From Bacteroidia bacterium (GTDB lineage: Bacteria > Bacteroidota > Bacteroidia > Bacteroidales > VadinHA17): a stretch of DNA of 64,000 nt. Under the pieces are notes generated by a model. The model made no database searches. It was not told the origin of the DNA and saw only the letters and a program-made list of their open reading frames with translations. Location: the NCBI GenBank assembly GCA_026391555.1, contig JAPLEB010000057.1, positions 17,934 to 81,933 of the forward strand. Direction: 5' to 3'. The translations under genes were made by a program, and so were the position numbers. Of this stretch, positions 2,211 through 24,929 are shown one piece after another (positions within the stretch are counted from its first letter, which is position 1; every line of letters begins with the position of its first letter).

Positions 2211-2888
2211 CTATTTTTGTGTTTTCTGGAGAATCTCATCAATCATCCCGTAGTCTTTAGCCTCCTGGGATGTCATCCAATAATCCCTGTCAGAGTCTTT
2301 TTCAACTTTTTCAACTGTATTTCCGGAATGGAGTGCAATTATTTCGTAAAGTTCTTTCTTAAGTTTTACGATTTCACGTACTGTAATTTCCATATCAGAA
2401 GCATGTCCTTCTGCACCACCCATGGGCTGGTGGATCATTATCCTGGAATGTTTGAGAGCAGATCGTTTCCCCTTTTTGCCGGCGGTAAGGAGAATAGCGC
2501 CCATTGAAGCTGCCATCCCGGTACAGATTGTGGCAATATCGGCTGAGATATACTGCATTGTATCGTAAATCCCCAGCCCGGCATTTACTGATCCCCCCGG
2601 AGTATTGAAATATATCTGGATATCTTTTCCCGGATCAGATGAATCGAGATAAAGCAACTGGGCCTGGATAATATTCGCTACATAATCATCTATTGGCAAG
2701 CCCAGGAAAATAATCCTGTCCATCATCAGACGTGAAAAGACATCCATTGATGCCACGTTTAGTTGTCTCTCTTCAATAATTGTAGGTGATATATAGCTCC
2801 CATATATGGAAGTGTACCTTTGCAGAGTCAGACTGCTGATTCCACGGTTGCTTTTTGCATATTTCCCAAAATCGTCAAGAATACTCAT
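2211..2888 (-). CDS. clpP: ATP-dependent Clp protease proteolytic subunit ClpP
   Basis: IFLGLPIDDYVANIIQAQLLYLDS, active-site context GMAASMGA, and MIHQP. The ORF track starts at a TTG (2912); the ATG at 2888 (MSILDD..) is preferred. Confidence 0.9.
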   Translation of the reverse strand: MSILDDFGKYAKSNRGISSLTLQRYTSIYGSYISPTIIEERQLNVASMDVFSRLMMDRIIFLGLPIDDYVANIIQAQLLYLDSSDPGKDIQIYFNTPGGSVNAGLGIYDTMQYISADIATICTGMAASMGAILLTAGKKGKRSALKHSRIMIHQPMGGAEGHASDMEITVREIVKLKKELYEIIALHSGNTVEKVEKDSDRDYWMTSQEAKDYGMIDEILQKTQK

Positions 2889-2957
2889 ATTTTCAGGATT
2901 AAAAATTAACAAACAAAGATAATGAAATAAAAATGTATTATCGCAATGCGTTGATTA

Positions 2958-4307
2958 CTATTCAAAAAGCTTATTGAATTCCTCAATTGTGACACTCTTG
3001 TTTTCAAGTTTCACAAGTTCTTTCATAAGTATAAAAACCTTTTCTTCAATTATCTTATCCGCGATTCTCTTTCCATCATCCTCCCGTTTGAGGGTCTCTT
3101 TTGCATAATTGTTTATCTGTTCCTCGGTGGCATAGAATAGGCCATACTGCTGGAATTGATACCTGGTTATGTTTTCGGCTTCTTTTAGCAACTCTTCCTC
3201 ACTGATCTTCACTTCGTTGTTTCTTGCGACCTTGTTCCTTATGAGTTGCCATTTAAGGTCTTTTCTGAAGCTGTCGAATTCTTTTTCGATCTGCTCCCGG
3301 TTGGGTTTTTCATTAACCTTCAGAAGCCATTTTTTCAGAAACTCTTCAGGAAGCTGAAAATCGGTTTTTTCAATGGCGAGGTTTTTAATATCCGTCATCA
3401 GTTTAAAATCGCTTTCACGTTTTAAGTTGAGTGCGATCTCATCCTCGATCTTCTTCATGAATTCCTCTTCCGAATTCACAACTCCTTCACCATAGATCTT
3501 GTCGAAAAGGTCTTTCCCTAATTCAGCAGGATGGAAACGGCTTATTTCATTAATTGTAAACCTGTAGTTCCCTTCAAGTTCTGCAACTTCTTCCTTCTGC
3601 TTATGTAATATCCCGGCTATTTCAGTATCATTCGGGTACGCTTTTTTCAGGTCAAAATCTATAGTATCGTTTGGGTTCTTACCAATAAACTGTTTTTTAA
3701 TTTTTTTATCTTTAATGATGTCAATGCCAAGTGAGGTATCTTCTACGGAAGTACCTTCCGGTATCACATTGCCATTATTATCAATTGCTTCAATTTTTCC
3801 CTTAATAACATCCTTCTCTTCGGTGAGGTCAGCTTTTCTTAATTCACCGTAACGATGTGTGTAGTTATCAAGATAATCACTCTTCATCTTTTCATCGATG
3901 ATGATCTCATATTGGATGACTTTATTTTTTTTGGATAGTTTTAGGTCAATTACCGGGGCCAGTCCAAGCTCAAATGAGAAAGTAAATTCCTCCCGGGTAT
4001 CGAAATCAATTTTTTCCTGTTCATCTGCTATTGGAAGCGGATCACCAAGGATATCAATCTTTTCTTCAGAAAGGTATTTCTTAATATTTTCTGTTACTAC
4101 TTTGTTGATCTCGTCAATCTGGGCAGCTCTTCCGTACATTTTCTTTATAAGGCCTATTGGAACCATTCCGGGGCGAAATCCTTTGATATTTGCCTTTTTC
4201 CTGTAATCCTTCAAAACGTTTTCAACCTTATCTTCATAATCGGTTTTCTCGATCTTAACTCTTAAAACAGCATTCAGATCGTCGATGTTTTCTCTGGTGA
4301 TATTCAT
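2958..4307 (-). CDS. tig: Trigger factor
   Basis: 449-aa acidic protein with GFRPGMVP (ribosome-binding signature GFRxGxxP). Canonical tig-clpP-clpX order. Confidence 0.9.
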   Translation of the reverse strand: MNITRENIDDLNAVLRVKIEKTDYEDKVENVLKDYRKKANIKGFRPGMVPIGLIKKMYGRAAQIDEINKVVTENIKKYLSEEKIDILGDPLPIADEQEKIDFDTREEFTFSFELGLAPVIDLKLSKKNKVIQYEIIIDEKMKSDYLDNYTHRYGELRKADLTEEKDVIKGKIEAIDNNGNVIPEGTSVEDTSLGIDIIKDKKIKKQFIGKNPNDTIDFDLKKAYPNDTEIAGILHKQKEEVAELEGNYRFTINEISRFHPAELGKDLFDKIYGEGVVNSEEEFMKKIEDEIALNLKRESDFKLMTDIKNLAIEKTDFQLPEEFLKKWLLKVNEKPNREQIEKEFDSFRKDLKWQLIRNKVARNNEVKISEEELLKEAENITRYQFQQYGLFYATEEQINNYAKETLKREDDGKRIADKIIEEKVFILMKELVKLENKSVTIEEFNKLFE

Positions 4308-4378: not shown

Positions 4379-4388
4379 GTCTTTTTTG

Positions 4389-4471
4389 TGCGGATGAAGG
4401 GACTCGAACCCCCACGTCACGAAGACACAAGATCCTAAGTCTTGCTCGGCTACCAATTACGACACATCCGC
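4389..4471 (-). tRNA. tRNA-Leu (anticodon TAG), class II with long variable arm
   Basis: The reverse complement reads GCGGATG...CAAGA-CTTAGGA-TCTTG...GTC-TTCGT-GAC...GGGGG-TTCGAGT-CCCTT-CATCCGC-A. This gives a perfect 7-bp acceptor stem, anticodon loop CTTAGGA (TAG), a T-loop TTCGAGT and a long variable arm. CCA is not encoded. Confidence 0.8.
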
Positions 4472-9661: not shown

Positions 9662-12600
9662 TTATTTATATTCATCCCAACTCTTAATTTCCAGGTCGTC
9701 TATGCTCATACGGCAGAAAGCCAGTATAAACGCACTTGCCAGCCGTGCATTGGTAATTAGAGGAACGTTATAGTCAACAGCACTTCTTCTTATGGTATAG
9801 TCGTTATTAAGTTCTTTATCGGAAAGATCTTTAGGGATGTTCACGACCATATCTACCTCGCGCGATTTGATAAGCTCTATTGTGTTTGGTGATTTGTTCT
9901 CGTCAGGCCAGTATGCTACATGTGCTTCAACGCCTGCATTTTTAAGGAACTGCCAAGTGCCTCGTGTTGCATAAAGTTTATGTCCTTTTTCCCGAAGCGC
10001 CTTAGCACTGTTTAGCAGTTCTACTTTTGAACGGGCCGGCCCGGTTGAAAGCAGAATACTCTTTATAGGAACCCTGTAACCAACAGAAAACATGGCTTTA
10101 AGTATTGCTTCATAAAAACCTTCTCCGATGCATCCGACTTCTCCTGTTGATGACATGTCAACTCCAAGAACAGGGTCGGCTTTTGCAAGACGCGAAAAGC
10201 TGAACTGAGGTGCTTTAACTCCGACATAATCGAGTTCGAATACCGTTTTACCCGGCTTTTCAGCCGGAACGCCAAGCATCACTTTTGTAGCAAGTTCAAT
10301 GAGGTTGATTTTAAGGACTTTTGAAACAAAGGGCATGCTGCGGCTTGCACGCAGGTTACATTCGATAACCTTAATGTCATTGTCTTTTGCAAGAAATTGG
10401 ATATTAAATGGACCTGAAATATTCAATTCTTTTGCTATATGGCGTGAAATTCGTTTAATACGTCTGGCTGTTTCAAAATATATTTTCTGGGCAGGGAATA
10501 CTATAGTTGCATCTCCTGAGTGAACACCTGCAAATTCTACATGCTCACTGATGGCATAAGCTATCATTTCCCCGTTCCTGGCCACCGCATCCATTTCGAT
10601 CTCCTTGGCATTCTCAATAAATTCAGAAACAACAACAGGATATTGTTTTGAAACCTGTGCTGCAAGCTCAAGGTAATGTGAAAGTTCATTTCTGTTTGAG
10701 ACTACATTCATGGCAGCTCCTGATAAAACATAAGAAGGTCTTATAAGAACTGGGAACCCGATACGGTCGACAAATTCAAAAATGTCATCAATCGAGGAGA
10801 GTTCTTTCCAACGAGGCTGGTCAACAAAAAGGTTATCAAGCATTTTTGAAAATTTATGCCTGTTTTCTGCCCTGTCGATAGAAACCGGTGAGGTGCCAAG
10901 CACCGGCACATTCTCTTTGTAAAGCCTCATTGCCAGATTATTGGGGATCTGACCGCCAACAGACACGATAACACCACCAGGGTTCTCCAGCTCAATAATA
11001 TCCAGCACTCTTTCGAAAGTCAGTTCATCGAAGTAAAGCCTGTCGCATATATCATAATCAGTACTTACAGTTTCGGGATTGTAGTTTATCATTACAGATC
11101 TGAATCCTTCTTTTTTTATTGTATCAATTGCATTCACAGAACACCAGTCGAATTCAACACTCGAGCCTATCCTGTATGCACCGGATCCCAGAACAATTAC
11201 CGATTTTTTATCTGTCTCACAAATTATGTCATGTTCAGAACCACTGTATGTAAGGTAGAGATAATTGGTAATAGCTGGATATTCAGCAGCAAGAGTATCA
11301 ATTTGTTTAATATATGGGAAAATACCTAACGATTTCCGATAGTTTCTCACTTTCATAAGATCGTCGTTGATGTCGGCCGTCCCGGATTTGAGTACAAGCC
11401 GGGCAATCTGAAAATCGCTGAATCCATTTATCTTGGAGTGGGAGAGCAGATCTGTCGGAATGGATTCGAGGGTTTGAAATTTACAAAGCTCATCTTTAAT
11501 ATTGATAATATTTTTCAGCTTAAAGAGGAACCATTTATCAATTTTTGTCAGTTCATAAATTTTTTCAACAGGTATCCCTGTTTCGAGGGCTTTGGCAATT
11601 GAAAAGATCCGCATATCTGTCGGTTCGGCAAGTTCCCTCTCAATATCTTCAAAGCCAAGGTCACGGTTACCGGTAAAGCCGTGCATTCCCTGCCCGATCA
11701 TTCTTAATCCTTTTTGAATAACCTCTTCAAAGGTTCTTCCGATAGCCATAACCTCCCCGACACTTTTCATGCTGCTGCCGATGAGGTGCGACACTCCTTC
11801 GAATTTATTCAGGTCCCACCGCGGGATCTTACATACAATATAATCAAGTGCCGGCTCAAAGCAGGCAGTTGTATTTTTGGTAACAGAGTTTTTCAGTTCA
11901 TGAAGTCCGTATCCCATTCCAAGCTTTGCAGCTATAAATGCGAGTGGATAACCTGTTGCTTTTGAGGCAAGCGCACTAGACCGCGATAAACGGGCATTCA
12001 CTTCGATGACCCTGTAGTCTTCAGAATCGGGAGCGAGAGCATATTGGACATTACATTCACCTACTATTCCGATATGCCTGATTATCCTTATGGAAAGTTC
12101 CCGGAGTTTATGGTATTCACTGTTTGTCAGAGTCTGGGAAGGAGCAACCACTATGCTTTCACCGGTATGAATGCCAAGCGGATCAAAATTCTCCATGTTA
12201 CATACAGTTATGCAATTATCATATTTATCCCTTACAACCTCATATTCAACCTCTTTCCAACCCTTTAGCGATTCTTCAACTAGGATCTGGTTTGTAAATG
12301 AAAATGCCTTTGAAGCAAGTGTCCTGAGTTCTTCAACATTCGAAGCAAAACCACTTCCCTGGCCACCCATAGTATATGCTGCCCTGATTATAATGGGGAA
12401 TCCGAGTCTTCCGGCGGCTTCTATTGCTTCATCAACTCCCCGTACTGCAATACTGTTTGGTGTTTTTATTTCTATCTCACCCAGTTTCTTTATGAAAAGC
12501 TCACGATCCTCGGTATCCATTATAGCCGAAACCGGGGTCCCCAGAACTTTCACATTATATTTTTCAAATACTCCTGATTTATAAAGTTCGGTTCCACAAT

Positions 12601-16289: not shown

Positions 16290-16299
16290 CCCCCCCCCC
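16290..16299 (+). repeat. C10 homopolymer immediately after the argH stop codon
   Basis: Ten consecutive C (16290-16299). It is followed by a C6 run (16319-16324) that can pair with G5 (16337-16341). Confidence 0.9.
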
Positions 16300-16428
16300 A
16301 TCATTCCTGACCTTTTTACCCCCCTACCTTCCAAATGGGGGCTTTGTTAATTACATAAAATCGACCTGTTCAGCTGATTTCTATCTATAATTAATCTCTT
16401 ACGGGATTAATAAAATGATTTCCTTTTT

Positions 16429-16468
16429 AAATTATTGGCAGCATTTCTTGTTTTGCTGCCAATAATTT
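16429..16468 (+). repeat. Perfect 15-bp inverted repeat (hairpin) abutting the first start codon of the defence operon
   Basis: aaattattggcagca (16429-16443) and tgctgccaataattt (16454-16468) with a 10-nt loop. The right arm covers the first two bases of the TTG start at 16467. Confidence 0.7.
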
Positions 16469-17246
16469 GTTTACCTTTAGCAAAAAATTTAATACCTTCG
16501 AAAAGAAACTTTACATACCACAGTTTAAAATAAGGTTCGAAAACAAGTTAGTTTTCAGCACTATAGATATCCTTTCCTTTTACAGAGAGATAGAACCAGA
16601 CATTCCATCTACTACAGTAAACTGGAGGGTCTACAAATTGGTTGACAATGGAATAATAGTACGCATCGGAAGAGGAAAATTTAAACTTGGTAAAGGATCT
16701 TTTTATTTTCCTGAAGTTGATAATCGGATTATCAGGATCAATAAATTCATTAAAGAAAAGTTTCCTTATATTCAATATTGTATCTGGGGATCGTATTCCA
16801 TGATCGAATTTGGTCATCACATTCCAAAAACTAATATCATATTTGTTGATGCTGACAGGGATTCAACAGAGTCTGTTTATCACTCCTTAAAAGAAGAATA
16901 TAGGGATGTATTTTATAAACCGGGTAAAGATCTCCTGAGTAACTATATCAATGATCTAAAAAGTGTAATAATTGCACGTCCTTTAGTTTCTGAAGCACCT
17001 TTACAAATTATAAAAAACGTACCTACCATAACTATTGAAAAGCTTCTTGTTGATGCTTTAGTTGATGAGGAATTTGGATTCCTGAAAGGGAATGAAATTA
17101 TTCATGTTTTTGAGAATGCCTTTGAACGTTATATTTTAAATATCAGTAAAATGATCAGATACTCAGACAGAAAAAGAAAGAAGCCGGAATTGCTTCAAAT
17201 ACTTAATAACTATAATTTGGCAGCATACCAGGATTTACTGCCATAA
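16467..17246 (+). CDS. AbiEi-like antitoxin/transcription regulator (N-terminal winged-helix; possibly the DUF6577-type partner of AbiEii)
   Basis: 259 aa. N-terminal ..FSTIDILSFYREIEPDIPSTTVNWRVYKLVDNGIIVRIGRGKFKLG resembles the AbiEi wHTH (..G.l.rv.rG.Y). It ends 9 nt upstream of an AbiEii gene. The only in-frame start ahead of the wHTH is TTG. Confidence 0.55.
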   Translation: MFTFSKKFNTFEKKLYIPQFKIRFENKLVFSTIDILSFYREIEPDIPSTTVNWRVYKLVDNGIIVRIGRGKFKLGKGSFYFPEVDNRIIRINKFIKEKFPYIQYCIWGSYSMIEFGHHIPKTNIIFVDADRDSTESVYHSLKEEYRDVFYKPGKDLLSNYINDLKSVIIARPLVSEAPLQIIKNVPTITIEKLLVDALVDEEFGFLKGNEIIHVFENAFERYILNISKMIRYSDRKRKKPELLQILNNYNLAAYQDLLP

Positions 17247-17255
17247 ATTTGAAAT

Positions 17256-18314
17256 ATGATATCAAATAAATCATTAAGTTTAGAATGGATCAATGAAGTC
17301 TCAGCAAAGAACAATAAAGCTGATAAAATCCTGATAGAAAAAGTCATTCGGGCATTGCTATTACTTGAGGGACTTGCAGAATCCGAATTTTCATTTGTAT
17401 TCAAAGGAGGTACTGCATTAATGTTGATGTTTGGTAGTGCAAGGAGGTTATCAATTGACATCGATATAATTGTACCTGAAAATATTGATTTCAAAAGTAT
17501 TTTTGAGAACATGGTAAAAACAAAATGGTTTACCCGTTACTCTGAGCAGAAAAGGAAGATAAAATCAAAAATACCAAAATCACACTTTAAATTTTTTTAT
17601 AAACCGGTTTATCGAACCTCAGAAGCTGAAGATTATGTCCTGTTAGATATTCTATTTGATAAAACTCATTATCAAAAACTTGTGAGTATATCTGTTGATT
17701 CTGCTTTTGTGGAACAGGAAGGGCCCCCTGCTAATGTTTCAGTCCCATGTTTTGATGACATACTTGGCGATAAGCTAACTGCTTATGCTCCAAATACAAC
17801 TGGAATCCCCTATCAAAAAAATGGGAATAGTCAGGCTATGGAAATAATTAAACAGTTATACGATATAGGATATTTGTTTAACAGATTCGAAGATCTTTCA
17901 GTCGTCGCAAAAACTTTTAATGAATATGTTAATGTAGAATCTGGTTACAGAGGTATAAATGTGAATCCGGAGGATGTTGTGGATGATATTTTTCAAACCT
18001 CATTGCTTCTGGGAACAAGGGGGATGGAAGGTAAAGGAGATTTTACGGCACTTCTTGCAGGAATAACTCAAATCAGGCAGTTTATCTTCTCAGAATTATA
18101 TCATATTGACAAAGCAATTACACATTCAGCTAAAGCTTCATATCTGGCTATAGCCATTAGGAAAAAGATACCTTCATTGGAGAAATATAAAGAACCTGGT
18201 CAGATTAAGAATTGGATTATCGAACAGCCATTCCACACCAGATTAAATAAACTCAAAAAGTCAAATCCGGAAGCATTTTTTTACTGGTATAAAATATATG
18301 AACTAACTAAGTAA
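17256..18314 (+). CDS. AbiEii/AbiGii-family nucleotidyltransferase toxin (type IV TA / abortive infection)
   Basis: FVFKGGTALMLMFGSARRLSIDIDIIV carries the pol-beta-type NTase motif (hGG..., DxD). 352 aa, a typical length for the family. Confidence 0.8.
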   Translation: MISNKSLSLEWINEVSAKNNKADKILIEKVIRALLLLEGLAESEFSFVFKGGTALMLMFGSARRLSIDIDIIVPENIDFKSIFENMVKTKWFTRYSEQKRKIKSKIPKSHFKFFYKPVYRTSEAEDYVLLDILFDKTHYQKLVSISVDSAFVEQEGPPANVSVPCFDDILGDKLTAYAPNTTGIPYQKNGNSQAMEIIKQLYDIGYLFNRFEDLSVVAKTFNEYVNVESGYRGINVNPEDVVDDIFQTSLLLGTRGMEGKGDFTALLAGITQIRQFIFSELYHIDKAITHSAKASYLAIAIRKKIPSLEKYKEPGQIKNWIIEQPFHTRLNKLKKSNPEAFFYWYKIYELTK

Positions 18315-18327
18315 CAATAATATACTA

Positions 18328-21300
18328 ATGGCCCGATCAACAGTACATTACGCAGACAATAAAACAAACAACGCTTTAAAGAAGCTTCATAATAAACTCC
18401 GGCCGGCAGGAACCCCTGTGCAGAGGGTTGAATATATTATTGAGTTACTTCTGCTTCGCATTTTTGAGACCAAGATAAAACAGGATGAGGAATTCAAACC
18501 TCTAAGAAAACTTTTTACATCAGATTACCGGTGGAAAAATCCTAAAACAGGGCAGGAAGAATCAAATGAAAACAGGTTGTTTTCTTACTTGCCAACCGTT
18601 ACGAATGAACAGATAAGCGCTGAATTGAATGATAATTTCTTTCCATTTTATTCTTCAATCCTGCAAAGCGCCCGGCAGGTATTTGAAGGCAATCTTCCTC
18701 AGAAAGTTCAGGACCAGCTGGTTCTGATTGAAGAAGTATTCAGCAATTCAAATTTTACAAATAATGTAAATAGCGGTAATCTTGGAGAGGTTATCGGAAT
18801 TGTCGCTAATGATATTGAGGAATCCAGATTACTGAAAACAGACTTGCTTGGTGATGCCATCGAATCAGCCTTAAGTGAAACAGGTGGAACGAAGGACATT
18901 GGTTTGTTCCGCACACCTGATCATGTGAGGCAGTTCATGACAGCTTTAGCAGAACCAACTTTTGATGACCTTGTTTTCGACCCTGCATGCGGAACCGGCG
19001 GATTTTTGTTTGACGCTTTCGAATTTGTAATGCGGCGTGTTGATCCTGCACGTGACTGGCCGGGAGAAAAAGCTCATTCTGAACTGCGCTCATGGTTTGA
19101 TAACTATTTCAAAAATCATCCTCTTGATTTCCCAAGTGTGGAACAGACTACACAATTCTATCGATCCGGTGTTGCCGGGATAGAGTATTTAGGTATGATC
19201 CGCAAAATGGCAGCTATCAACTTTTATATACGTGGATTGAACCCGGCCAACATTCAACAGGGTGATTCCCTCGCAAAGTATAATCCTGTTACAGATGCCG
19301 GAAGTAAAACAGTTGTTATAGCTAATCCCCCCTTTGGTGCAGAATGCGACCAGGAAGCTTACCCTGAGGTATGGGGAGAATTTCCAAAGGAATCAGAGAC
19401 TACAATCCTTTTTGTAAAGTTGATGTTTGAGCTCCTTAAAGATACCGGAAGATGCGCTGTGATCGTTTCTGAAGGATTTCATACCTGGGATCAGAATAGC
19501 GCCAAAGCGCTTCGTAAAATGCTGCTGGATGAGGCGCAACTGAAAGCAATCATTTCTTTGCCGCAGGGTTTGTTTGTGAGCAAAGGAGGTCAGGGGCCGA
19601 AAACTTCTATACTACTTTATGAAAAAGGGGGCAAAACAGATTGGGTATGGTTCTATAAAGTAACAAACGATGGTTATACTATGGGAACCAACCGAAGGGA
19701 ACAAAAAGGAAATCAGTTAGTCGAATGTTTGAATCTTTTTAATAAATATGTTAAACAAGGTAAACAACCTCCGGAATCTAAGCATCAGTTTTGCATACCT
19801 GCAGATTGGATAAAAACACTCGATCCACGGATAAAAGAAAAGATCCGGAACGATACCAGGGCAGATATGGAAACCAAAGGGAAACTCGACAGGGTAAAGA
19901 AAACCGAAGATCTGGATAAAAAGATTGCATCTAATAAACTTACAGAAGCCGGAAAGCAGATGGAACTGAAAATCTTTGACCAGATGCTTGAAAACCGGAT
20001 ACAGAACGAGATTGCAAAGAGAATAGATAAGGCTCATAATTATTCTTTCAATCTTTCAAATTACAAAAGCACATTGAGTGAAAGCCAGATATCTGAGTTG
20101 AAAGATGCAATCAAAAATATAACACCCAATGGTTCAACAACATTAGATGAGGTTTATAAAAATCTGTCTCTTGCAAATCCGGAAGCATCATTACCATACC
20201 TCGCAAAACTAAACCCTGTAAGCGCTCTGGAAGCTGATATTGCAAGAGGTTTTGTCAGTAACCTGGCAGAAGATTTAATAAAAGGGCAGAAAGAATTTTA
20301 TAAAATAAAGGAAATATTAAAGAGCGGAGCCAAATATCCTATTGTAAAATTGAAAGAGTATTTGATTCTGAATGAGAATAAAATCAAACCTGCTAAAAAT
20401 CCGGATGTAAATTATAAGGTTCTCGGGGTTTCAAATGAGATTGGGGTTTTTGTAAATGAAAAGCTAAATCCGGAAGAGACTAACCAATCCTATTATCTGG
20501 TCAAAAAGGATCAATTTTGTTATAATCCGTACAGAATAAATGTTGGTAGCATTGGACTTAACGAGTACGATTATGATAATCAGATAATAAGTGGGGCTTA
20601 CATTGTATTTGGCTGTCAGGAAGAACTAAATCCAAAGTATCTGGGTGCATTATTTAAAAGTAAAGGATTCTTGGAATACGTAAATGATAAAGCAAATGGT
20701 GGAGTAAGGATGAACTTTAAATTTGAAGATTTGGAGTTTTGGGAAATTCCACTCCCTCCAGTTGATGAACAAGCTGATATTGTCAAACAGATTGAAAAAC
20801 AGAAGATTATTATTGAAGGAGCAAGGAATATATCGAAAGTGTATGAAGTAGATGAAACAATATTTGCCAATTTTGAGAAGTTAAAATTGAGTGATGTTGC
20901 TTATTTAATAATGGGACAAAGCCCTCCAGGTAACACCTATAATGAAAATGGGGATGGTTTTATACTTATCAATGGCCCGACTGAATTTGAGAAAGGAGCT
21001 TTTGATGCTCCAAAAAGAATTAAATGGACAACGAAACCTACTAAATTCTGTAAGGAAAAAGATCTGTTAATTTGTGTTCGGGGTGCAACAACTGGGAGAA
21101 CTAACATAGCTTCATTTGAAGCATGTATTGGAAGAGGTGTAGCCGCAATAAGAGCTAAGGATGACAAAAGCCAAAAATACATTAATTTCTACATTAATTG
21201 TTTTAAAAATAGGATTCTTGGAATGGCATTTGGAGCTATGTTTCCAAATTTAACTTCAGACCAGTTAAATAATTTTGAGATTTCTTTCCCATCAATAGAT

Positions 21301-21438
21301 GAACAGGAAATTATAATCTCTCATATAAATTTACAATTACAGGTAATTGAGGGATTAAGTAAAATGGAAATTGAAGCAGAAAAGAAAATTGAAAATATCT
21401 TAGCAGATGTGTGGGGTATGGAAATATCAAAACCTTAA
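18328..21438 (+). CDS. Type I restriction-modification HsdM-HsdS fusion protein (N6-adenine methylase + two-TRD specificity subunit)
   Basis: Motif I DPACGTGGF (aa 218-226) and motif IV NPPF (aa 333-336). A K/E-rich linker spans aa ~480-665. Two HsdS TRDs follow, each ending in a PxxDEQ..I conserved helix (PLPPVDEQADIV at ~aa 808, FPSIDEQEIII at ~aa 987). Confidence 0.8.
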   Translation: MARSTVHYADNKTNNALKKLHNKLRPAGTPVQRVEYIIELLLLRIFETKIKQDEEFKPLRKLFTSDYRWKNPKTGQEESNENRLFSYLPTVTNEQISAELNDNFFPFYSSILQSARQVFEGNLPQKVQDQLVLIEEVFSNSNFTNNVNSGNLGEVIGIVANDIEESRLLKTDLLGDAIESALSETGGTKDIGLFRTPDHVRQFMTALAEPTFDDLVFDPACGTGGFLFDAFEFVMRRVDPARDWPGEKAHSELRSWFDNYFKNHPLDFPSVEQTTQFYRSGVAGIEYLGMIRKMAAINFYIRGLNPANIQQGDSLAKYNPVTDAGSKTVVIANPPFGAECDQEAYPEVWGEFPKESETTILFVKLMFELLKDTGRCAVIVSEGFHTWDQNSAKALRKMLLDEAQLKAIISLPQGLFVSKGGQGPKTSILLYEKGGKTDWVWFYKVTNDGYTMGTNRREQKGNQLVECLNLFNKYVKQGKQPPESKHQFCIPADWIKTLDPRIKEKIRNDTRADMETKGKLDRVKKTEDLDKKIASNKLTEAGKQMELKIFDQMLENRIQNEIAKRIDKAHNYSFNLSNYKSTLSESQISELKDAIKNITPNGSTTLDEVYKNLSLANPEASLPYLAKLNPVSALEADIARGFVSNLAEDLIKGQKEFYKIKEILKSGAKYPIVKLKEYLILNENKIKPAKNPDVNYKVLGVSNEIGVFVNEKLNPEETNQSYYLVKKDQFCYNPYRINVGSIGLNEYDYDNQIISGAYIVFGCQEELNPKYLGALFKSKGFLEYVNDKANGGVRMNFKFEDLEFWEIPLPPVDEQADIVKQIEKQKIIIEGARNISKVYEVDETIFANFEKLKLSDVAYLIMGQSPPGNTYNENGDGFILINGPTEFEKGAFDAPKRIKWTTKPTKFCKEKDLLICVRGATTGRTNIASFEACIGRGVAAIRAKDDKSQKYINFYINCFKNRILGMAFGAMFPNLTSDQLNNFEISFPSIDEQEIIISHINLQLQVIEGLSKMEIEAEKKIENILADVWGMEISKP

Positions 21439-21452
21439 ACTAATTAAGTTAT

Positions 21453-23831
21453 ATGACCCGAAAAATTAACGAGGCAACATCTACCGATCTGAGAGTCATT
21501 AAACTACTTGAATCGGTTGGATGGAAACCGGAAGATACTTTACTTTATCAGCAGGAATATACTCTTCATCCTGAACAACAGGTTCAATTCCAGGGTTTCA
21601 AATCAATTAAGCCGGATATTGTACTCCAGGATATGAATGGAGAAATTATAGCTGTTTTAGAAAACAAACTCGAAGATGAGCGAAAAGCGTTACAGAAGCT
21701 ACGGATACTATATTCTGCAGTTCTGAAACCAAGATTTTTATATGCCTGTAGTTCAGAAAGGATCTTATTTTATGATAATTCATGGAAGGGTTTAGATGCA
21801 GGGGAATTCAGGCAGGTAACCTCTTTCATGAGCCTCGAAGAGATGAAACTGAAAGTCGAACAGCATCGAAAGATCTCTTCCAAACGCGAAGTAAAGATTG
21901 ATACAACAATTGCCGGAGGATTTGATACAACAGTAGGAAAAGAAAGGTATTACCAGCTTCAATGTATAAGGACCCTTATTGACAACTATAAAGCAGGGAA
22001 ACAGAAGATGCTTGTCCACATGGCAACAGGTCTGGGAAAAACCAGGACAGCAGTTGCATTAGTTAAAGCATTGCTTAGTCATGGCCTTGCAAAACGCATT
22101 TTGTTTGTTGTTGACAGAAGGATGCTTGCGAAACAGGCTATTGAAAAGGGATTCGCACTTATAAGCAAAGAGTATCCTTCAAGCTGGATAACTTCCTCGA
22201 GTTTCAGGAGCAGGAAACATGCAAGCATTCATGTGGTTGTTATTGACACATTAGAGCTTATTTACAGTGACTTATCTTCTAATTTTTACGACCTGATAAT
22301 TGTCGATGAATGTCATCGGAGCATAAATGTTAACCGGAAACTTATTTTTGATCATTTTCTGTGTCCGAGGATCGGTCTGACAGCAACACCCAGAATTGCT
22401 GTCTCCAAAGAAGGAACAGAGGTGCCTGAAGAGGACCTGGCAATAATGGATACTTACCGGATGTTTGGCTGTGAAGCCGGAGAACCGGATTTTAAATTTG
22501 ACATTAAGAGAGGAATTGATGAGGGGTTTCTGGCACCGTACAAGCCTATTGAATTACTTTCAAATCTTATAAAGGAGGCTGAAGAAAATGGAATTGAATT
22601 TGATCATGTACTTGAACCGCAGGAGAAATATACAATTCAACTTGACTATAAAAAGAAACTAAAGCTGGAACAGTTAAACCGGAAATTTATTTCAGAAGAA
22701 AACTGTCTGCGTATTGCTGAAGAATTGAAAAAGAACACACAATGGGGAGAGAAAATAATTTTATTTGGTGTAAGTCAGGCTCATTGTATCGAGCTTGCCA
22801 AGGCAGTCAATTCAGTTTTTGAAATAGATTTTTCAGATAAGCCATACTATGCTGAAGCTATTATTTCTGAAAACAGTGAATTAAATGAAACACTGAAGGC
22901 CTGGTTTGATAAACCCTATAAGAAACCTTATGTTGCTGTTTCCGTAGACATTATGACGACAGGGGTTGATATACCATGTGTCCGTTATATATCTTTTGCA
23001 GCTTTGACAAAATCGGTAGGCAAATATGTTCAGATGCTTGGCAGGGGTACCAGACTCGATCCGAAAACAGGTAAAAACAGTTTTATAATTCTTGATTTTG
23101 TCGGATTATGCCGGAGAATGGAGGATAATGGATATGGCACCCTGAAAGAGAATAAGAAGATAATCAGCGGAGCCAAAGGAAGAACAGTTATTGAAAAGCC
23201 ACTTCCCCGTGGCGATTATTATCTTATTGACAATCCTGATCCTGCCCACTTAATACAAAGAGTTGATATCCATGGAGATTCTATAAAGATTGTGGACAAT
23301 ATCCCAATTGAGGAAGCAAAAAGGATTTTTGAAGAGGAATTAAAGAAATCTCAGAATCCGGTAATGACTGATCTGAAAGAAAAGGCAATGACTAAAGAAT
23401 ATGAACCGACTGAAGTTGAAGTACAGAAATTTACAGACTGGCTAAGCAAACCAAATGTCTTTCTCGACGAGGGGCATCTTCAAAAAATGTATGATTTTCC
23501 GGAAGGTTCAGCCTGGGATTTTATGCTTCATGCTTTAGGCAAAAAGAAGATACCTTCTCCAAAAGAACGTATTGAAAAGAATTATTTATCTTACCTTCAT
23601 ACATATAACTTTACCGATGGACAGATAAAAGTGCTTAAGAAAATTAAGGATGTTTTTTCCTCGAACATTTCTTCAAAGAGGGATATTGATGTCAATGAAA
23701 TATTCGGCAATCCTATATACGAGAGACTAATAGGTTCTAAGGATGAGATAAATAAGATATTTGATAACAAACTAGATCTGGTTATTGCTGATTTGAAACA
23801 AACATTTGGGTTAATGAGGCCGAGTGCATAA
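21453..23831 (+). CDS. hsdR: Type I restriction enzyme R subunit, short EcoEI-like form (PD-(D/E)xK nuclease + SF2 helicase)
   Basis: The N-terminal KPDIVL..AVLENK gives D55/E70/K72. Helicase motifs are MATGLGKT (aa 190-197), DECH (285-288), TATP and QMLGRGTR. The C-terminal helical tail resembles the EcoEI R C-terminal domain. Confidence 0.8.
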   Translation: MTRKINEATSTDLRVIKLLESVGWKPEDTLLYQQEYTLHPEQQVQFQGFKSIKPDIVLQDMNGEIIAVLENKLEDERKALQKLRILYSAVLKPRFLYACSSERILFYDNSWKGLDAGEFRQVTSFMSLEEMKLKVEQHRKISSKREVKIDTTIAGGFDTTVGKERYYQLQCIRTLIDNYKAGKQKMLVHMATGLGKTRTAVALVKALLSHGLAKRILFVVDRRMLAKQAIEKGFALISKEYPSSWITSSSFRSRKHASIHVVVIDTLELIYSDLSSNFYDLIIVDECHRSINVNRKLIFDHFLCPRIGLTATPRIAVSKEGTEVPEEDLAIMDTYRMFGCEAGEPDFKFDIKRGIDEGFLAPYKPIELLSNLIKEAEENGIEFDHVLEPQEKYTIQLDYKKKLKLEQLNRKFISEENCLRIAEELKKNTQWGEKIILFGVSQAHCIELAKAVNSVFEIDFSDKPYYAEAIISENSELNETLKAWFDKPYKKPYVAVSVDIMTTGVDIPCVRYISFAALTKSVGKYVQMLGRGTRLDPKTGKNSFIILDFVGLCRRMEDNGYGTLKENKKIISGAKGRTVIEKPLPRGDYYLIDNPDPAHLIQRVDIHGDSIKIVDNIPIEEAKRIFEEELKKSQNPVMTDLKEKAMTKEYEPTEVEVQKFTDWLSKPNVFLDEGHLQKMYDFPEGSAWDFMLHALGKKKIPSPKERIEKNYLSYLHTYNFTDGQIKVLKKIKDVFSSNISSKRDIDVNEIFGNPIYERLIGSKDEINKIFDNKLDLVIADLKQTFGLMRPSA

Positions 23832-24929
23832 ATTCAGATTCAGGTTATTAGTTATTGATTTCTCAATATTCTCTATAAAAATATCGAATAGATAGTCAGT
23901 ATCTGTTGGTCCGCCGGACGCTTCCGGATGAAATTGAGTTGAGAAAAACGGCATGGTCTTATGTTTCATTCCCTCGTTTGTCTGGTCGTTAATATTGATG
24001 AAAAGCGGTTCCCAATCCTTCCCTAAGGTTTTGTTATCGACTGTAAATCCATGATTCTGTGATGTGATATAGGCTTTATCCGTACCTACCTGAATAACCG
24101 GTTGATTGTGGCTCCTGTGACCATATTTCAGTTTATAAGTATCTGCCCCTGAAGCCAGCGCCATTAACTGATTGCCCAGACAAATCCCGAATATGGGTTT
24201 TGTACCGGAAAATGATTTTTTAATATTTTCGATTGTAATGCCGCACATTTTTGGATCGCCGGGGCCATTGGAAAGAAATAGTCCGTCAAATTCTTCCTTG
24301 TGAAAATCATAATCCCATGGGACTCTTATAATTGTAGTATCCCTTTTCAGGAGGTTTCTGATTATATTATACTTTACTCCGCAGTCAACTAATAGTATTT
24401 TATATTTTCCTGAGCCGTAAATCTTTTTTTCATGTGTGCTCACCTCTGCAACAAGGTTCACTTTGTTTGGGTCATAAAATCCGATTTCGGTTCCTTCGGG
24501 TTCAACCTTGCCAGGCATGGCTCCTTTCTCACGGATCCTTTTTGTCAAAGCTCTTGTATCTATACCGTAAATCCCCGGCACATTATTTCTTTTCAGCCAC
24601 TCATCGAGGCTTTCTGTGGCATTCCAGTGGCTGTACTCAAAGGAATAATCAGATACAATGAGCCCTGAGATATGAATAGAGGAAGATTCATAAAAACGAT
24701 AAAGATCATTTTCTTCGCTTTTCCCGGGTGCACCATAGTTACCGACAAGTGGATAGGTAAGGCATAGGATTTGTCCGCGATAAGATGGATCGGTTAAACT
24801 CTCCGGGTATCCCGTCATGGCAGTATTAAAAACCACCTCTCCAGCAGCGGGGACAGGCGATCCGAAGGACCGGCCATGATAGATCGTTCCATCTTCAAGG
24901 GTTAACCGGACCTTTACGCTGTTTTTCAT
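23811..24929 (-). CDS. carA: Carbamoyl-phosphate synthase small (glutaminase) subunit
   Basis: TGYPESLTDPSY, the GATase triad context GICLGNQL, and ..QFHPE. 372 aa. Its last 7 codons overlap the 3' end of hsdR. Confidence 0.95.
   Translation of the reverse strand: MKNSVKVRLTLEDGTIYHGRSFGSPVPAAGEVVFNTAMTGYPESLTDPSYRGQILCLTYPLVGNYGAPGKSEENDLYRFYESSSIHISGLIVSDYSFEYSHWNATESLDEWLKRNNVPGIYGIDTRALTKRIREKGAMPGKVEPEGTEIGFYDPNKVNLVAEVSTHEKKIYGSGKYKILLVDCGVKYNIIRNLLKRDTTIIRVPWDYDFHKEEFDGLFLSNGPGDPKMCGITIENIKKSFSGTKPIFGICLGNQLMALASGADTYKLKYGHRSHNQPVIQVGTDKAYITSQNHGFTVDNKTLGKDWEPLFININDQTNEGMKHKTMPFFSTQFHPEASGGPTDTDYLFDIFIENIEKSITNNLNLNLCTRPH

Follow-up and report, generated by a model that had tools for sequence, protein, structure and literature searches.

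A probably horizontally acquired defence island between argH and carA of a Bacteroidales genome combines an AbiE pair with a fused type I restriction-modification module

We analysed a stretch of 64,000 nucleotides from a Bacteroidia bacterium (GenBank assembly GCA_026391555.1, contig JAPLEB010000057.1, positions 17,934 to 81,933), hereafter called the window, in which four same-strand genes lie between argH and carA. PADLOC and Pfam searches assigned the four proteins to AbiEi, AbiEii, a type I methyltransferase plus specificity protein (M+S) and a type I restriction subunit (R). In our judgement, with a probability of about 0.7, the genes form a horizontally acquired cassette made of two separable modules that have long travelled together, namely a self-promoted AbiE toxin-antitoxin (TA) pair and a fused type I restriction-modification (R-M) module. 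The locus is a real yet fairly ordinary accessory defence island, made of known parts. An original prediction, made from the DNA letters, had described a tight operon for an AbiEi-like protein, AbiEii, an HsdM-HsdS fusion and HsdR. Its coordinates, strands, lengths and gaps were reproduced exactly by our listing of open reading frames (ORFs), with intergenic gaps of 9, 13 and 14 nt (Table 1), and the proposed identities were upheld by Pfam, PADLOC, PDB and NCBIfam matches. Four points described below go beyond that prediction: the separate mobility of the two modules, the large family to which the M-S fusion belongs, the many further defence systems led by AbiE, and the inverted repeat common to both abiE genes.

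For comparison of the locus with its relatives, one genome per species was scanned with ArgH. The scan yielded 80 loci (63-93% ArgH identity) of uncultured Bacteroidales from fens, peat, lakes and digesters, whose gene order was scored by tblastn with 13 window proteins. The order carB(-) argR argG argH(+) carA(-) aminotransferase(-) was preserved almost everywhere. The carA gene was next after argH in 72/80 loci, at a spacing of at most ~0.5 kb in 71 of them and of 1.7 kb in L059, whereas two of the 80 loci stop at a contig edge and one (L013) holds other cargo between argH and carA. None of the four island proteins had a tblastn match in any of the 80 argH loci. The claim that the genes are wedged into an arginine and carbamoyl-phosphate neighbourhood was thus borne out: 0/80 related species carry them at argH|carA, most have the direct junction, and the opposite outcome, relatives sharing the genes, clearly did not occur. 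The flanking genes carB, argR, argG, argH and carA all scored above the NCBIfam curated cutoffs, and exact-sequence look-ups of the window ArgH and CarA returned no match.

The borders of the island were read from the junction alignment. In the closest relatives examined, the argH-carA spacer is a short C-run/G-run hairpin comparable to the window segment directly after argH, which we regard as retained ancestral DNA and which contains a terminator-like site at 16327-16341. The window diverges from the relatives at ~16346/16347, and homology is back at ~23852, inside the last carA codons. CarA of the relatives ends in ...EKSIG*, whereas that of the window reads on to ...EKSITNNLNLNLCTRPH*, and the TIGR01368 match to the window protein stops at residue 357 of 372. 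We conclude from these two observations that the insertion replaced the carA stop codon, adding ~13 codons. It also removed the terminator between the now convergent genes hsdR and carA, whose ORFs share 21 nt on opposite strands. In this terminator-free, overlapping arrangement, transcription of either gene may read through into the other in antisense. The poly-C(10) tract at 16290-16299, immediately after the argH stop, is a homopolymer that could vary in length or reflect an assembly error.

The island also differs in composition. Its GC content is 0.362, compared to 0.396 ± 0.009 for other 7.5-kb windows (z = -3.9), and its tetranucleotide distance reaches z = 8.5 versus the rest of the window; both z-scores were calculated from overlapping windows and are indicative only. 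The GC content is lowest in abiEi, abiEii and the region of the target recognition domains (TRDs), and the M core is host-like. In agreement with the original prediction, a search for direct and inverted repeats at the ends of the island gave none, and we found no integrase or transposase among the island ORFs (the only ones of at least 150 aa are the four defence genes) and no tRNA junction, the nearest tRNA, at 4388-4471, being ~12 kb from the island. Rfam matched nothing but a tRNA in the window. We conclude from gene order and composition that the island is, in all likelihood, a horizontally acquired insertion of foreign composition. An origin without insertion, in which the four genes were ancestral at argH|carA and lost in the relatives, is hardly conceivable. 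It could draw on the fact that the closest ArgH is 93% identical and that the comparison contains no same-species genome, but the argH|carA adjacency is shared by 72/80 species over the whole range of ArgH identity, and the closest relatives examined have just a short hairpin there. Moreover, the island composition is foreign, the carA tail extension is unique, and the cassette occurs at unrelated sites elsewhere.

We rejected the idea that argH|carA is a recurrent defence hotspot, because the only other insertions at this junction (L013 and L059) carry no defence genes; their cargo consists of genes related to the type IX secretion system, DNA alkylation repair genes and EamA transporter genes. 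In 5/80 loci (L043, L063, L070, L076, L079) carA is missing and the next gene after argH is that of a PatB-type aminotransferase; L043, L076 and L079 lack carB at its usual place as well.

Table 1. Positions of the island, its genes and its candidate control elements in the window
Feature	Position	Strand	Remarks
Retained ancestral argH-carA intergenic DNA	16290-16346	.	poly-C(10) and C/G-rich terminator-like hairpin
Inserted defence island (predicted)	16347-23850	+	~7.5 kb; edges approximate, within ~5 nt, read from junction alignment
Inverted repeat 1 (putative AbiEi operator), extended arms	16430-16467	+	core 16437-16460; overlaps a -33-like TTTG
abiEi (ORF1)	16467-17246	+	259 aa; DUF6577, winged helix-turn-helix (wHTH) antitoxin/repressor-like; start codon uncertain
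-7-like promoter element TACCTTTA	16472-16479	+	from upstream alignment; perfect TAnnTTTG at this position in more distant relatives
Inverted repeat 2	17219-17242	+	GGCAGCA, 10 nt, TACTGCC; within the last abiEi codons, just before abiEii
Perfect Bacteroidetes-type -7 motif TAAATTTG	17244-17251	+	4 nt before the abiEii ATG; possible internal promoter
abiEii (ORF2)	17256-18314	+	352 aa; DUF1814-family nucleotidyltransferase toxin
hsdMS (ORF3)	18328-21438	+	1036 aa; HsdM-HsdS fusion with two TRDs
HsdMS TRD1	20344-20835	+	
HsdMS TRD2	20869-21327	+	
hsdR (ORF4)	21453-23831	+	792 aa; PD-(D/E)xK nuclease, superfamily 2 (SF2) motor and EcoEI_R_C tail
carA ORF	23811-24929	-	372 residues; convergent with hsdR
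Extra C-terminal carA codons	23811-23852	-	made by the insertion; overlap the hsdR stop

The first two genes encode an AbiE pair. AbiEi matched Pfam DUF6577 (9e-63) and four PADLOC AbiEi models, the best of them with 1e-76 over residues 18-250. AbiEii matched Pfam PF08843 (1.2e-20; 74.9 bits vs a cutoff of 22.5) as well as PADLOC PDLC02299 (2e-133) over its full length (residues 1-350), and its nucleotidyltransferase motif, GGTAL...SIDIDI at residues 51-71, is intact. As is characteristic of AbiE, the genes form a bicistron in which the antitoxin gene comes first and is followed after 9 nt by the toxin gene, with inverted repeats (putative operators) upstream of both.

The third gene product, HsdMS, matched Pfam N6_Mtase (3e-37) and Methylase_S and the PADLOC type I M and S models. 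An N6-adenine methyltransferase domain (residues ~1-500) is followed by helical linkers (~500-670) and the two TRDs. Motif I (DPACGTGGF, residue 218) and motif IV (NPPF, residue 333) are those of a gamma-class N6-adenine methyltransferase. The HsdM part aligned with PDB HsdM chains including 3ufb, 2okc and 5ybb_A, and residues 673-1023 aligned with residues 15-384 of the 398-aa HsdS 5ybb_D (8e-31) and also with 3okg, so that the whole S part is matched by HsdS structures with two TRDs. Within the S moiety, long helices were predicted at residues 812-838 and 990-1029 on the basis of secondary structure only. The AlphaFold2 model of HsdMS was poor, with a mean predicted local distance difference test (pLDDT) score of 57 and a predicted template modelling (pTM) score of 0.34, and the M domain could not be placed relative to the TRDs. 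Long helices at residues 500-534 and 540-572 (window 19825-20040; block-mean pLDDT 67-83) precede the S moiety. As a weak hint, the helices before the S moiety and its own two may form an intramolecular four-helix bundle.

HsdR matched Pfam ResIII, Helicase_C and EcoEI_R_C, and its best PDB match was 3h1t (4e-38). Its motifs PD55...E70xK72, GLGKT at residue 193 and DECH at residue 285 are intact. The best NCBIfam model was the EcoAI/FtnUII R subunit NF046051, which matched over the full length with 255.2 bits, below the equivalog cutoff of 550. We therefore assign HsdR, by similarity, to the relatives of the EcoAI/EcoEI (type IB) family, of which it does not appear to be an equivalog. Classical type I enzymes have three separate subunits (R2M2S1), whereas M and S form one polypeptide here; nor is the protein a single-chain enzyme of type ISP or type IIG/IIB, the nuclease-motor being a separate 792-aa protein. 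Because M and S form one polypeptide and the window contains no further hsdM or hsdS gene, the locus fits the definition of "Type IMS" (Roberts et al., 2012; PMC3510504), in which HsdM and an HsdS of one or two TRDs are fused and HsdR is a protein of its own, with the hsdR gene adjacent in our case, and not classical types IA-IE.

HsdMS is no isolated case. We found 989 homologues at E ≤ 1e-20 in sources that include Bacteroidales, Ignavibacteria, Algoriphagus and Pedobacter. The best 120 of the 989 are 933-1079 aa long (118 of them 1000-1100 aa), 68-81% identical, and cover 83-100% of the query (~100% in all but three); nearly all have both Pfam domains. An EcoEI_R_C-type HsdR of ~790-860 aa follows HsdMS in 10/10 independent contexts sampled, the window included, although it is split over two ORFs in one context (P0004). 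HsdMS and HsdR constitute a large conserved family, the natural counterpart of the engineered "Type IMS". AbiE precedes HsdMS in 2/10 contexts. In five of the ten (P0004, P0018 (L167), P0024 (L168), P0058 (L170) and P0090 (L084)), one or two KilA-N, Bro-N or DUF6932 genes lie between hsdMS and hsdR. An AbiGi-like gene follows hsdR in L170, and in L172 another gene for an M-S fusion is found downstream.

Comparison of the TRDs revealed that L081 shares both with the window, L084 TRD1 only, and L102 neither. TRD exchange of this kind usually points to a type I specificity that is functional and diversifying, and the pattern indicates the same for this family. A pattern of constant TRD1 and variable TRD2 among the top 120 homologues was discarded as an artefact of similarity ranking, as the comparison of L102 and L081 makes clear; with it we gave up the assumption that TRD1 is degenerate.

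Each module moves independently of the other. In PLSDB, four Bacteroidota plasmids carry the AbiE/DUF6577 pair, which stands alone on both that were inspected. No HsdMS-family members were found on PLSDB plasmids, which gave only distant HsdM proteins, and the IMG/VR virus scan was negative. In L168 (ena:ERZ21878146 contig_5), an HsdMS-KilA-N-HsdR unit lies between two DDE transposase genes (DUF772/DDE_Tnp_1) in a composite-transposon-like arrangement, and in L169 (GCA_965283715.1) the R-M unit has mobilisation genes (HTH_17, Toprim and NikA-like) as neighbours. The R-M module may have travelled in such transposase and mobilisation settings.

A second set of 80 loci (51-82% identity) came from scanning metagenomes with AbiEii. 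These are short contigs found via AbiEii, and the frequencies and the pattern of AbiE outliving R-M are therefore ascertainment-biased. AbiEi lies upstream of AbiEii in every locus with enough sequence. The four-gene order is complete in L102 and L167, the latter with an extra Bro-N gene between hsdMS and hsdR, and is interrupted by contig ends in L106, L128 and L134. Stumps of hsdMS comprising the first 27-122 codons follow an intact abiEi-abiEii pair in L089/L092, L108, L112, L130 and L147 (the L089 stump lies at 2832-3230), and three of the breakpoints cluster at codons 27-32. L122 retains only the last 42 codons of hsdR (10093-10218) after an intact pair. These stumps and the hsdR tail represent repeated independent deletions of the R-M part, and remnants of hsdMS or hsdR beside intact abiE fit addiction.

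The junction between the two modules is conserved. The distance from the abiEii stop to the hsdMS ATG is 5-16 nt in 12 independent loci, the window and L167 included, despite an AbiEii identity of 52-82%, whereas AbiE-less hsdMS genes have an upstream region of 180-630 nt in 7/8 contexts. In the AbiEii tree, hsdMS-linked pairs fall into at least five clades interleaved with others. This distribution suggests that the abiEii-hsdMS linkage is old and that the R-M part was lost or replaced repeatedly.

R-M is not the only cargo of this AbiE clade. Among the 47 loci with at least 900 nt downstream of abiEii, 18 have a same-strand ORF within 70 nt, and 13 of these 18 tight ORFs are nucleic-acid-targeting defence genes or hsdMS remnants. 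The AbiE-led genes include type I loci with a classical HsdM+HsdS (L090), a frameshifted HsdM (L104) or HsdM+GmrSD (L152), Wadjet JetABCD (L115, L159), McrB/McrC-like genes (L131, L135), PLD-SNF2 (L118), NUDIX plus PLD-helicase-DUF3427 (L129) and a 1606-aa DEAD+UvrD protein (L103), besides HsdMS and its remnants. The clade is thus repeatedly followed, at a distance of 2-16 nt, by operons of type I R-M, Wadjet, McrBC-like and PLD-helicase systems, whereas the neighbours are mostly housekeeping genes if the gap after abiEii exceeds ~140 nt. PADLOC neighbour scans, which provide family-level counts, revealed type I genes downstream only; a few type II R-M genes were located upstream, as in ordinary island clustering.

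Two inverted repeats mark the control region of the AbiE pair. Repeat 1, upstream of the conserved part of abiEi, has the core arms GGCAGCA (16437-16443) and TGCTGCC (16454-16460), separated by 10 nt. The box GGCAGCA-N9/10-TGCTGCC was found by strict pattern within 110 nt upstream of abiEi in 28/60 loci, as compared to 0.9% of background windows, and many further abiEi loci differ from it by one base. In the upstream alignment of the relatives, the motif TAnnTTTG, which is the -7 consensus of Bacteroides promoters, follows the palindrome ~20 nt before the conserved AbiEi N-terminus. Repeat 2 (direct repeat D3) is 77% identical to repeat 1. At least 49/77 loci have this second box immediately in front of the abiEii ATG, and the arms of boxes 1 and 2 co-vary within loci (permutation p = 0.0002). 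The -7 motif after box 2 is also present in the close AbiE clade of the window (L085-L093). Because known AbiEi proteins autoregulate through inverted repeats, we infer that both boxes are putative AbiEi operators, which would place transcription into abiEii and the downstream genes under AbiEi control. Alternatively, box 2 may act as an RNA hairpin. No terminator-like site was found between the four island genes, and a sigma-70 promoter scan of the window remained at chance level (35 found vs 32.2 expected).

Several observations weigh against the reading as a two-module cassette. Independent expression of the downstream genes could start from the -7 motif 4 nt upstream of abiEii, from another at 21270 (183 nt before hsdR) or from a promoter inside abiEii. 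Eight of the ten HsdMS contexts lack AbiE, each module being also found without the other, and over half of the AbiE loci have housekeeping genes downstream. As the loci had been found by the AbiEii search, the remnants are a biased argument for addiction. Stoichiometry is a further point: the engineered EcoKI fusion required free HsdM in vitro (PMC3510504), and the window is without a separate hsdM.

Some of these observations would suit an explanation in which AbiE and R-M are merely neighbours brought together by defence-island clustering and are transcribed and act independently, the short gaps reflecting the compaction of mobile DNA. The position of the AbiE clade upstream of many unrelated systems points the same way, and the comparison of terminator-like sites after abiEii (0/19 tight loci vs 9/58 others) was not significant. 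We nevertheless regard mere neighbourhood as rather unlikely. The narrow abiEii-hsdMS spacer recurs in 12 loci over at least five AbiEii clades, the region upstream of hsdMS is long in 7/8 AbiE-less contexts, and a scan for the Bacteroidetes -7 motif detected no TAnnTTTG within 250 nt upstream of hsdMS. Near-zero gaps (2-15 nt) on the same strand, moreover, also precede Wadjet, PLD-helicase and other type I genes.

The start of abiEi is a further difficulty. The probable start codon is non-canonical throughout the clade: among the relatives (L085-L164), ATC occupies one and the same position in 44/63 loci, ATT and ATA occur in three each and ATG in one, and in 34/53 loci the stretch from the preceding in-frame stop to the conserved AbiEi N-terminus is free of ATG, GTG and TTG. 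The window, by contrast, has ACC (16494-16496) at this position, and a window-specific indel opens the abiEi frame to TTG 16467, the sole canonical start there. As this TTG may sit upstream of the transcription start, expression of the antitoxin is uncertain in the window. One could argue that the cassette is partly disabled or decaying, the antitoxin having lost its start codon and the locus being silent or non-functional. The location of TTG 16467 inside box 1 and upstream of the -7-like element is compatible with decay, and R-M decay is common in the relatives. However, none of the four ORFs is truncated, the catalytic motifs are intact, and the frame-opening indel makes TTG 16467 usable. 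An expressed toxin without antitoxin would be counter-selected, yet abiEii is intact. We thus consider a decayed cassette quite improbable. Automatic annotation of abiEi is probably often too short or wrongly started in this clade; the abiEi homologue of L167 was cut to 199 aa by a gene caller.

On the preferred reading of a mobile two-module cassette, AbiEi would act as a wHTH autorepressor that binds both boxes, and transcription from the abiE promoter or promoters would run on into hsdMS and hsdR, making the four genes one AbiEi-controlled unit. Co-transcription is favoured because of the lack of terminator-like sites between the genes, the conserved 5-16 nt junction and the long upstream regions of AbiE-less hsdMS. 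HsdMS would methylate a bipartite site set by its two TRDs and, together with HsdR, cut unmodified incoming DNA after ATP-driven translocation. AbiEii, a nucleotidyltransferase that probably acts on tRNA as MenT toxins do (PMC7450476), would arrest growth once infection or cassette loss has removed the control by AbiEi. AbiE would then serve as a backup defence layer and also make the cassette hard to lose, just as it stabilises plasmids. Co-transcription, two-layer defence and addiction, all raised by the original prediction, are plausible hypotheses.

The AbiE systems of Lactococcus and Streptococcus agalactiae are known to regulate themselves, to act as type IV TA systems, to stabilise plasmids and to confer phage resistance (PMC3985639), and AbiEi operators are inverted repeats (PMC7319586). 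The pair of the window resembles AbiE (PMC3985639) in its leading antitoxin gene, short gap, DUF1814 toxin with GG...DxD, PADLOC AbiEi score and inverted repeats in the promoter region, as well as in its occurrence in defence islands and on mobile DNA. It differs in that the antitoxin belongs to Pfam DUF6577 instead of AbiEi_1/3/4 and that the repeats lie ~780 bp apart, one per gene, and not adjacent in one promoter. Furthermore, the likely start of the clade is a conserved ATC, and the pair heads a longer operon instead of standing alone. The presence of AbiE in defence islands was already known (PMC3632139, PMC3985639), and Bacteroidales from peat are notably rich in AbiEii (PMC10924106).

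The name "Type IMS" was proposed for the engineered EcoKI MSFusion, which restricted and modified in vivo (PMC3510504), and the engineered S. aureus CC398-1 MSfus also restricts and modifies (PMC6158711). As in both fusions, the HsdM of the window is fused in frame to a full two-TRD HsdS, in the order M then S, and HsdR is separate. Unlike these, HsdMS is natural, belongs to a large conserved family and has a ~170-residue helical linker before TRD1. Its partner HsdR is EcoAI/EcoEI-like and not of type IA or IC, the gene for a free HsdM is missing, and activity is predicted from sequence. HsdR shares with type IB enzymes (EcoAI, EcoEI) the architecture with the EcoEI_R_C tail and the best NCBIfam model (EcoAI/FtnUII), but the type IB subunits M and S are separate, and the score of 255 bits is far below 550. 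Roberts et al. postulated M-S fusion as an evolutionary path from type IA/IC to type IB (PMC3510504), and the type IB-like HsdR partner fits this route.

The combination of an abortive-infection function with R-M has precedents. PrrC, an abortive-infection/toxin protein, is embedded in the EcoprrI type I R-M locus between the hsd genes and is held in check by the R-M complex. Here, too, an Abi or toxin function is joined to a type I R-M operon, suggesting a second defence layer. In contrast to PrrC, AbiE is located at the 5' end and has its own antitoxin, and the same clade also leads Wadjet, McrBC-like and helicase-nuclease systems. Other defence operons are headed by regulators, such as the WYL-type repressors BrxR/CapW and the C-proteins of type II R-M. 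The island shares with these a gene for a small DNA-binding repressor with a palindromic (putative) operator at the 5' end of the operon, whereas its putative regulator is a TA antitoxin, and regulation of the downstream genes is deduced from the boxes. Genes embedded in type I R-M, BREX and DISARM loci have been treated under the term "guilt by embedding" (bioRxiv 10.1101/2024.01.29.577857). In a literature search that covers part of the field, we did not find "DUF6577" in any paper, a description of a natural Type IMS family (the literature there deals with engineered fusions only), or a description of the AbiE clade as 5' leader of diverse systems or of its twin boxes.

A wider proposal, which we offer tentatively and think doubtful as a whole, is that DUF6577-type AbiE serves DNA-targeting immune operons as a "driver and anchor" that is portable and regulates itself. 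AbiEi would gate downstream transcription via both boxes, the toxin would make swappable and losable cargo addictive, and a conserved, non-canonical AUC start would keep the antitoxin-repressor low. As a separate idea, HsdMS proteins could represent the natural "Type IMS" intermediate postulated between type IA/IC and type IB.

For this genome, the locus is an ordinary accessory island whose arrival slightly altered the carA 3' end. If the inferences are correct, a TA pair would promote, regulate and help to retain immune cargo that can be exchanged, which would help to explain how defence islands are assembled, kept and exchanged and would add an antitoxin-based class of regulators to the BrxR/CapW-type controllers. 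The HsdMS/HsdR family may serve as a natural, widespread test case for a single-chain M-S type I enzyme, and HsdMS bears on stoichiometry, on the methylation of one versus both half-sites and on the fusion route between type I families.

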